Source: Octopus vulgaris (taxonomy: Eukaryota). From it: a DNA stretch of 64,000 bases. The notes under the pieces were generated by a model. It made no database searches. It saw only the letters and a program-made list of their open reading frames with translations, and was not told where the DNA came from. The stretch spans positions 30,814,001 through 30,878,000 of the forward strand of contig OX597830.1 in NCBI GenBank assembly GCA_951406725.2. The letters are read 5' to 3'. How positions within the stretch are numbered: position 1 is the stretch's first letter; the number at the start of each line of letters is the position of its first letter. Of this stretch, positions 47,449-53,585 are shown piece by piece. Made by a program: the position numbers and the translations under genes.

Positions 47449-47797
47449 CGTAAAATAGGGACAAAACATAATTATGCAGTTTCTTTTTCTCTTAATTAAA
47501 ATCACGTAGCCATTAGATAGAACGCATTCATCACATCATTAGCAACAACAACAACATCATCACGGCAGTTCATAATAAGAGAGGTTGGTCATCTTGCAGA
47601 CCGAGTGTTATAAACAAAATTGAGCCAAGGGAAGTAACTCAAAGTGACCGATGACATTTAATCGAATAACTTAGACAAATACAAGTATAACGAGTACCAT
47701 ATAACAAAAGTTATGTGTTTTGATCACCAAAGGTAAGTTTTGGTGAGGACTGCTTCGATGTTATTTGGTCATTGCCTCTTCGACGAGGATAACGTTG

Positions 47798-47983
47798 CTC
47801 TGTATTTAAGAGATGAGGAATTATGCACATTATTTATATTATTTACATTCAACGAATATTTGTCCTCATCTTGTTTGTTGTTAACACAACGTTTCGGGTG
47901 ATATACTCTACAGCCTTCATCAGCGGACTCGGGGAAATTTCGAACCTGGGTTCTCATTCTTAAGGTATTTTTCGATGTTATTC

Positions 47984-48046
<63 letters not shown>

Positions 48047-48219
48047 TCACTGTCTGGAATCGAACTCGGAACCTTGGGGTTAGTAGCCCGCGCTCTTAAC
48101 CACTACGCCATATGCCCAAGACAGCTGATGAAGGTTGGAGGGTATATCAGCCGAAATATTATGTTAACAACAAACAAGATGAGGACAACTATCCGTCAAA
48201 TGTAAATAATGTAAATAAT
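47798..48219 (-). mobile_element. tRNA-headed non-autonomous retroelement with hammerhead-bearing Penelope-type tail and inverted 5' tail copy
   Basis: TSD GAGGATAACGTTG at 47785-47797 and 48220-48232; tRNA-like head 48117-48046; (AAT)n 47978-48042; HHR cores at 47884-47927 (-) and 48121-48164 (+); inverted arms 47828-47924 / 48124-48220. Confidence 0.8.
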
Positions 48220-48340
48220 GAGGATAACGTTGACCTTACATCCTTCACACAGATGTTCTTGAAAATACCAGGAAAGCAATGATGATGGAAGGTCTCCAGT
48301 TGAGTTACATGTGGACGTAGATCACACACACACACACACA

Positions 48341-48814: not shown

Positions 48815-49133
48815 GACTCCGCCGGTTACGACGACGAGGGTCCCAGCTGATACGATCAACGGAACAGCTTGCTCGTGAAATTAACGTGCAAATGGCTGAG
48901 CATTCCACAGACACGTGTACCCTTAACGTAGTTCTCGGGGATAATCAGCGTGACACAGAGAGTGACAAGGCTGACCCTTTGAAATACAAGTACAACTCAT
49001 TTTTGCCAGCTGAGTGGACTGGAGCAACGTGAAATAAAGTGTCTTGCTCAAGGACACAACGCGTCGCCGGGAATCGAACTCACAACCTTACGATCATGAG
49101 CCGAATGCCCTAACCACTAAGCCACGCGCTCTC
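48815..49133 (-). mobile_element. SINE family D (tRNA head, GTTGTGTCCTTGAGCAAGACAC body) sharing its tail with the SINE at 50631
   Basis: A box TGGCTTAGTGG, B box GTTCGATTCC; 48815-48984 is homologous to 50820-50990. Confidence 0.85.

Positions 49134-53003: not shown

Positions 53004-53006
<3 letters not shown>

Positions 53007-53083
<77 letters not shown>
53007..53083. repeat. (TTA)n microsatellite
   Basis: Direct reading. Confidence 0.95.
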
Positions 53084-53085
<2 letters not shown>

Positions 53086-53119
53086 ATCCTCCTCTTCCTC
53101 ATCATCATTATTATTATTA

Positions 53120-53585
53120 AGGCGAGCTGGCTGATTCATTAGCACGCCGGACAAAATACTTGGCGGTATTTCGTCTGCCGTTACGTTCTGAGTTCGAATT
53201 CCGCCGAGGTTGACTTTGCCCTTCATCCTATCGGGGTCGATAAATTAAGTACCAGTTACGCCCTGGAGTCGATATAATCGACTTAATCCGTCTGTCTGTC
53301 CTTGTTTGTCTCCTCTGCGTTTAGCCTCTTGTGGGTAGTGAAGAAATAGATATTCTGTCCGTCCTTACGTTCTGAGCTCAAATTCCACCGTGGTCAACTT
53401 TGCTTATCATCCTTGGGGGGGGGGGGGGGGTCAATAAATTAAGCACCAGTAAATAACCCCCACACCACCCCAAAATTTTACGCCTTGTGCCTATAGTAGA
53501 AAAGATTATTATCATTATTGTCAACGCGGTGACCTGGCAGAATCGTTATCTCGCTGAGCAAAATGCTTAGCTTTTTGCGTTCTGA
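53120..53585 (+). mobile_element. Two to three tandem SINE family A copies
   Basis: Family A head and central domain repeated. Confidence 0.85.

Follow-up and report, generated by a model that had tools for sequence, protein, structure and literature searches.

A Penelope/Poseidon-type element of Octopus vulgaris whose terminal repeat has a tRNA-derived head, and its many short SINE-like copies

The Penelope-like elements (PLEs) of the Penelope/Poseidon group, as described in the available parts of the reports on PAc of Anolis (PMC11167929), on Penelope of D. virilis (PMC2377424) and of PMC8557442, carry one open reading frame (ORF) for a reverse transcriptase (RT) with a C-terminal GIY-YIG domain and a hammerhead over the ORF start, and their insertions show a one-sided tail of 30-40 bp, an inverted, 5'-truncated arm and a target site duplication (TSD). 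The octopus repeat that is analyzed here shares all of these features. It differs in that its terminal repeat (pLTR) consists almost wholly of a tRNA-derived module with A and B boxes followed by (AAT)n, whereas the described Penelope promoter is LINE-like and internal, and in that most of its copies are free of the ORF and start at the tRNA module, in a unit without a run of four T (T4). The minimal hammerheads of PLEs have an extra base between positions 9 and 10.1, a G10.1-C11.1 pair, a short helix I and a palindromic 15.2-16.2, and occur in opposite-strand pairs 100-700 bp apart (Cervera and de la Pena 2014, PMC4209133); the octopus ribozyme has the same properties and shows no difference from them as far as the available text of that paper goes, in which the words tRNA and octopus do not occur.

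Three other systems combine part of these elements in a different way. A tRNA-related Pol III promoter and a type I hammerhead are found together in the very abundant short repeats Sm-alpha and Sj-alpha of Schistosoma, but these are tandem repeats from which a canonical, active ribozyme frees monomers, with no partner named in the available sections (PMC6765202, PMC2770079), whereas the octopus repeat has a minimal ribozyme that does not mark its ends and is part of an identified autonomous PLE. The animal non-LTR retrozymes (bioRxiv 10.64898/2026.07.22.740005, PMC7229834) and Chlamys MRC1 (PMC8557442) are likewise short and non-coding, contain PLE pLTR sequence and likely use PLE enzymes, but they form head-to-tail arrays (with circular RNA in the case of the retrozymes), and the available parts of these sources mention neither a tRNA head nor Pol III. 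The TRIMp3 elements Cassandra, Helenus and Ajax have a small-RNA-derived Pol III promoter in the terminal repeat and are non-autonomous LTR elements according to the accessible text (PMC10886601), whereas the octopus repeat belongs to an autonomous PLE. Already known are the PLE architecture and ribozyme, the tRNA head combined with a hammerhead, non-autonomous PLE derivatives, and Pol III promoters in non-autonomous LTR repeats; apparently new is a Poseidon-type PLE of which the terminal repeat is headed by a tRNA module and which is accompanied by many short, SINE-like copies. In the literature outside most subscription papers, Repbase Reports and Dfam, we found no tRNA-headed pLTR, no tRNA SINE mobilized by a PLE and no autonomous PLE with a tRNA-derived promoter in its pLTR.

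The locus lies in a window of 64,000 nucleotides of contig OX597830.1 (positions 30,814,001 to 30,878,000), which is the whole stretch of DNA that was analyzed and to which the coordinates refer. Read on the minus strand, the insert consists of an inverted tail piece (48219-48115), a tRNA-derived head (48117-48042), an (AAT)n linker (about 47982-48041) of which the length varies among copies, and a tail (47981-47798) that is recognized as the 5' end of the PLE unit by its translation and by its continuity into the RT ORF elsewhere. It is flanked by 13-bp direct repeats at 47785-47797 and 48220-48232 (plus strand) that are 100% identical. A preliminary description of the locus had reported this TSD and the (AAT)n tract, both of which are present, as well as an inverted tail copy of about 100 bp attached through CCC microhomology. 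The inverted copy proper, with the short 3' end, spans 48115-48219 on the plus strand (tail positions 49 to about 153) and shares the CCC at 48115-48117 with the head, so that the arms are joined head to head, by a class of junction that recurs in other loci. The inverted arms 47821-47938 and 48110-48227 are 84% complementary across 118 nt. Also the one-sided extension of the long 3' end (47798-47827, minus strand, tail positions about 155-184) and the absence of poly(A) were correctly noted and are general in the family; with 30 nt, the extension agrees with the tail of 30-40 bp given in the available parts of PMC8557442 and PMC11167929. In the tail, an ATG at 47957-47955 opens the first 53 codons of the PLE ORF, and this frame is still open in the window copy. 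Elsewhere in the window, the minus strand at 49000-49129 holds another repeat with a tRNA head, which scores 25.1 bits with the Rfam tRNA model (less than the gathering score) and has a body unrelated to the present family, and a long (AAT)n tract without adjoining head or tail of this family is found at 53006-53122.

The genome that was searched comprises 2.8 Gb in 227 contigs. First-look candidates numbered 3,916 for the tail, of which 40 were scored, and 908 for the head, and an exact 23-mer of the head occurred 1,585 times, as compared to 0 for the reversed control. Evenly picked stretches adding up to 400 kb contained six family loci (five with tail, one with head only), from which a copy number of about 42,000 is extrapolated (95% range 15,000-91,000). 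The tail arms have a mean identity of 93% to the family majority, a value that applies to loci selected by similarity. Head and tail are linked, as the preliminary description had proposed to verify: the tail was present in 28 of 29 loci found with the head, and 74 of 90 exact-head loci had a forward tail downstream in the same orientation. This linkage rules out an ordinary SINE inserted in an inverted PLE remnant. The segment L002:1387-1700 was found in sequencing runs of five organisms (69-90% of words), with no RNA run among the runs listed as containing it. At one locus (L019:986-1699), an ORF-linked copy precedes a 146-nt tandem array, at the end of which head and tail are complete, the array unit being composed of the head, the first 31 nt of the tail and an inverted tail piece.

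The head (48042-48117, minus strand) is closest to tRNA-Arg among the sampled tRNAs. The family majority aligned best to tRNA-Arg(TCG), with 50 identities in 73 nt and a score of 67 (shuffle mean 26.8, SD 5.1), in a comparison with a partial tRNA set of 43 distinct calls and 11 anticodon types. We take 48110-48100 to be the A box and 48065-48056 to be the B box, presuming the usual box consensus; by the same standard both boxes are intact in the family majority, whereas the cloverleaf has been lost. The tRNA-like head with A and B boxes that was proposed from the sequence thus holds by visual matching of the boxes. ARAGORN called no tRNA in the window, and Rfam gave neither a tRNA nor a hammerhead match on the insert at E<=10; this silence reflects the limits of the models rather than absence of head and ribozyme. 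A separate cluster of seven tRNA calls within 3 kb, six of them Cys, was seen at L116:138-2854.

The source of the repeat became visible by RNA reads on a short copy, of which the loose ends 5' of the head match the DNA upstream of the head in L019 and L020. A search with this upstream sequence yielded copies in which the C-terminus of an RT/GIY-YIG ORF lies about 33 nt before the head, and a search with the RT part yielded near-full copies, including L180, L183, L187 and L190, with the tail running into the ORF. The tail is continuous with the RT ORF in L180, L183 and L187, and head and tail occur again after the ORF in L183, L187 and L190. The autonomous unit, about 2.6 kb long and present in the same genome, has the order head, (AAT)n, ORF start with the hammerhead inside, RT, GIY-YIG, stop codon, about 33 nt, and the next tRNA-derived head. 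An ATG at tail position 25 opens the frame that runs through the hammerhead into RT, and in the majority of 31 aligned pieces the ORF starting there is stop-free over 838 codons, about four of which are an artefact of joining pieces. It is 56.5% identical over 830 columns to P0001, an 847-aa RVT_1/HTH_animal protein for which an Atlas search confirmed the RT/HTH_animal family; L187 matches residues 18-136 of this protein. All copies that were examined are decayed, the longest stop-free stretch among the P0001 matches being 569 codons.

Pfam recognized RVT_1 in the ORF with E=3e-6, which is below the curated cut-off, and GIY-YIG was read by motif, Pfam giving no match on that piece. The ORF contains DKG and two Cys inside the GIY-YIG motif and lacks a CX2-5CxxC linker. 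The presence of DKG, two Cys between GIY and YIG and the absence of the linker are given as Penelope/Poseidon diagnostics in the available part of PMC8557442, and these motifs place the family with the Penelope/Poseidon PLEs. Other PLE properties are the single ORF with RT and C-terminal GIY-YIG, the pLTR formed by partial tandems with its inverted, 5'-truncated arm and one-sided 30-40 bp tail, and the minimal type I hammerhead in the pLTR, recognized by sequence and fold. The preliminary description was right in attributing the tail to a PLE, since it is the N-terminal part of the ORF of an autonomous PLE in the same genome, and a LINE-derived tail is thereby ruled out. What must be given up is the notion of a separately built SINE-retrozyme hybrid that parasitizes a PLE, as the autonomous element itself has this head, linker and tail as its junction region. 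Nor does the name retrozyme apply: copies do not end at the cut site, those sampled are scattered as singles or as head-to-head pairs instead of forming head-to-tail arrays of hammerhead units, and the only array that was seen (L019) has a repeated unit without ribozyme.

The hammerhead in the forward tail of the window copy (minimal type I, 47883-47928, minus strand) has its core at 47923-47917, GAAA at 47895-47892 and a predicted cut between 47888 and 47887, and both helix I and helix II have decayed. In the second copy, on the plus strand in the inverted arm (core 48125-48131), it is the ACGU palindrome that has decayed. The minimal ribozyme had been pieced together from these two copies, which appear to complement each other's mutations because each decayed, at different places, from one consensus; the family majority indeed has an intact minimal type I hammerhead, with a helix I of 5 bp, a helix II of 6 bp and a palindromic ACGU that replaces helix III. 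All 11 scored core positions are kept in 74 of 151 arms, and the only common core variant outside CpG concerns the free position 7 (T in 102 and A in 43 of the 151 arms). Two passes of the motif scan on shuffled loci gave zero matches. By its sequence this is a candidate ribozyme, which would need to dimerize through the ACGU palindrome.

The hammerhead lies inside coding sequence, near the start of the ORF, as it does in PAc of Anolis, for which cleavage was dispensable for insertion in vitro (available part of PMC11167929). The peptide encoded by the ribozyme core is conserved in P0001, which suggests that the overlap of hammerhead and ORF is old. That the ribozyme sets the ends of the copies was considered and rejected, since the 3' ends cluster at tail positions 140-165 and 183-187 and the cut site is at position 94. 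No back-joint at the cut site was present among the joints listed for the RNA reads, which are from libraries not made for circular RNA. We also rejected the possibility that, as in D. virilis, an intron ends at helix I; an AG is present there, but no such joint occurs among those listed, and the frame that is open from the upstream ATG also disfavours it. Most likely the hammerhead has been inherited as sequence that is both coding and ribozyme; if it cuts at all, it would do so only as a dimer, and the ends are not determined by it. The genome contains at least three further hammerhead families (L012:311-372, L055:about 560-950, L069:208-454, L100:3107), by eye without a tRNA head; at three of these loci the copies are inverted head to head next to (TA)n, and the loops of helix III are palindromic.

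The clusters of 3' ends, at tail positions of about 140-165 and 183-187 and without repeats, return in the pairing of the arms. In the first loci, 39 of 40 inverted pairings combined a long and a short end, the exception and one other pairing involving a third copy. Because 29 of these loci had been chosen with a long end, the pairing was examined again on the exact-head loci (89 after one duplicate was dropped), where 40 pairs gave 35 long/short, 5 short/short and no long/long combinations, the long end being found on either arm. A TSD score of at least 8 was obtained for 29 of the 35 long/short pairs, as compared to 2.1% of 238 mismatched flank pairs, with TSD lengths of 8-17 bp (median 13). 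The PLE-type insertion scars that were suspected from the window copy are thus a regular feature of the family. An inverted arm with a one-sided tail of 30-40 bp is known for PLEs (PMC8557442) and has been explained by two internal priming sites, at which PAc of Anolis primes internally (PMC11167929, both sources as far as available). In all copies, tail positions 135-160 are made up of two or three copies of a 9-nt unit, which is in frame in the ORF, and the short 3' ends fall inside these units.

The arms of one locus also share alleles, at tail position 63 in 24 of 28 cases (P=0.0009) and at position 132 in 31 of 35 cases (P=0.0003). Five sites were examined in all, and the other three did not reach significance, position 129 giving P=0.17 and position 22 showing no concordance. 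Shared variants amount to 0.52 per 100 nt within loci and 0.18 between loci. This makes it likely that both arms derive from one RNA or one source locus. Fold-back copying predicts shared alleles too, like two primings on one RNA, and the two are not told apart by these data.

The 5' ends are equally regular. Among the 89 exact-head loci, 69 begin at the 5' edge of the tRNA module and 20 run on into the 3'UTR/ORF; in a BLAST comparison of 90 exact-head loci, 16 continue upstream and, with one exception, the others agree with the native sequence upstream over 0-7 bases. When arms were selected independently of their head, 31 of the 32 that reach the first 9 nt of the head stop there. Partner arms (70) end in the tail (26), the linker (19), the body of the head (6) or at its edge (18), and one runs on, whereas 29 long arms chosen by their tail end short of the head edge (9 + 7) or at the edge (13), with none running on, in a count that misses ORF-bearing arms with a tail more than 900 nt away. 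An inverted ORF arm is present at six loci, and in each of them the central arm is linked to the ORF as well (established by BLAST for four and by inspection for two). These ends are most simply read as the product of an RNA with its 5' end at the head edge, from which most copies likely come.

In our opinion, the insert in the window is probably a head-to-head pair of the terminal repeat of an autonomous Penelope/Poseidon element, likely copied by the RT/GIY-YIG protein of that element from RNA that likely began at the tRNA-derived module, a predicted Pol III promoter. RNA synthesis would start at the head, the endonuclease would nick both strands about 13 nt apart, and each nick would prime at one of two internal sites, separated by 30-40 nt, of a single RNA or of RNAs made from one source locus, after which the two cDNAs would join at their 3' ends via short microhomologies. 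Such two-nick, two-site priming is favoured, with fold-back copying as a possible alternative. With internal priming, no poly(A) tail would be needed, and a SINE-like copy could arise from any RNA beginning at the head, whether transcribed from a pLTR or from a short copy or forming the 5' end of the full mRNA.

An alternative explanation for the sharp 5' edge, which we consider unlikely, is a hotspot for truncation or joining, with full-length Pol II RNA being primed at the 3' repeat, cDNAs stopping or annealing at the palindrome of the head edge, and the tRNA module being an inert relic of an old SINE insertion. At the head edge the native sequence forms a short palindrome (5-bp inverted repeat) that could itself attract junctions, which often use its C/G runs, and 5' truncation is the rule for PLEs (PMC8557442, available part). 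However, the step is very large, since 3.4% of the ends are expected within 10 nt if truncation is as frequent as in the ORF, against the 69/89 found and the 31/32 of unselected arms. Furthermore, the head edge is also the start of copies that directly adjoin flanking DNA (e.g. L245, L254, L263, L300), the majority has kept intact A and B boxes but not the cloverleaf, and T4 runs are absent from the unit.

It is quite unlikely, too, that the short copies are a free-standing SINE lineage in which short masters propagate short copies and the heads of PLE and SINE only share an ancestor. Short copies do outnumber ORF-linked ones (69 vs 20), and their linker is longer, with a median of 36 (n=50) vs 24 (n=8, P=0.046) in the exact-head set and 35 vs 20 (P=2e-5) when differently selected sets are pooled. 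A third 9-nt unit is also commoner in short loci in such pooled sets (33/70 vs 8/35, P=0.02), but this difference vanishes in the exact-head set (3/10 vs 10/24), where divergence does not differ either (0.068 vs 0.056, P=0.43). A comparison of 51 ORF-linked and 84 short heads revealed no diagnostic substitution except two C>T changes, and the tail keeps the PLE reading frame. On whether the short copies are a lineage of their own, the evidence is weak in both directions. Some self-propagation of short copies would fit with copying from the terminal repeat of the autonomous element; only a separate origin or lineage is disfavoured.

There is only a small chance that a Pol II promoter starts the RNA at the head edge, as in D. 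virilis Penelope, with short copies as by-products of internal priming at the 5' signal copy on the mRNA: the internal TATA-less promoter in the pLTR of that element (PMC2377424), the internal priming of PAc near the ORF start (PMC11167929, both in the available parts) and the normal translation of a capped RNA would agree with it, but the start falls at +1 to about -7 in tRNA numbering, a short distance upstream of the intact A box, the tRNA module fills most of the short non-coding region, the absence of T4 runs has no Pol II explanation, and no splice joint occurs among the joints listed.

Returning to a start at the tRNA-derived module, which is predicted to act as a Pol III promoter, the distribution of T4 runs is of interest. 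The majority sequence of head, tail and ORF has zero runs of four T on the sense strand, as compared to a mean of 2.9 in synonymous shuffles (P=0.024, 1,000 shuffles), a modest P for a test on one lineage. Seven pieces of other PLE ORFs in the genome contain 28 such runs in 8,565 nt, three LINE control pieces contain 0, 1 and 2 (the piece with zero being 858 nt long), and decayed copies of the family contain 22 in 38,484 nt. The absence of T4 runs from the majority unit fits Pol III transcription of the whole element. The RNA reads of organism B showed no sign of a Pol III transcript; they were about equally distributed over the strands, without a peak at start or end, which an unstranded library or host transcripts would also give, and their depth only about doubled at the head edge. 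None of the 11 copies that reach the join of tail and ORF has a forward head in front (four reach the tail start or linker). Uncapped Pol III RNA is a poor mRNA.

It is likely, judging from these sequences, that the element uses tRNA-type transcription and spawns its own SINE-like copies. A more far-reaching proposal, which we put forward tentatively and hold to be possible but doubtful, is that Pol III transcribes the autonomous PLE over its whole 2.6 kb from the captured tRNA promoter, the sense strand being free of T4, and that internal priming yields the tens of thousands of SINE-like copies of the promoter region, so that SINE and partner would be one unit.

The short copies resemble SINEs as described in PMC3531059 in being smaller than 700 bp and non-coding, with a tRNA-derived head. 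They differ from that description, which has a partner LINE and a 3' tail of simple repeats, in that the partner is the parent PLE, the 3' ends are two fixed internal sites without repeats, and the tail is a dead-end piece of the ORF. Whereas SINEs are defined as LINE passengers, a SINE-like family of PLE origin is here tied base by base to its partner, which itself carries a Pol III-type module where the promoter should be. This would be a route for the birth of a SINE straight out of the terminal repeat of an autonomous element, and it raises the question of whether RNA made by Pol III can function as the mRNA of a retrotransposon. With so many short head-to-head pairs, the integration step of PLEs, which is unexplained, can also be studied by counting: a long end paired with a short one, a stagger of 13 bp and alleles shared by the arms fit the two priming sites seen in vitro.

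For the annotation of the octopus genome it follows that part of the sequence labelled as SINE is PLE sequence. Ohshima and Okada reportedly described, in 1994, the octopus tRNA SINEs OK and OR1 and a tRNA-Arg origin. The short form is possibly the same repeat as OR1, in view of its tRNA-Arg-like head, length of 300-400 bp and copy number in the tens of thousands. OR2, which PMC4758252 lists among the CORE SINEs, is unlikely to be the same repeat, given the PLE coding body of the octopus family. The parts covered of a report on octopus repeat annotation (PMC13282606) are without a description of the family. A search of the genome with the Pfam GIY-YIG profile detected Neptune-type families, none of them matching the tail, and thus failed to pick up the autonomous element described here. 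A young Neptune-type PLE, with a 781-codon open frame in many copies, is present at L091:2245-4587 and at many other loci, and the L091 copy is preceded by an open frame of 359 codons.
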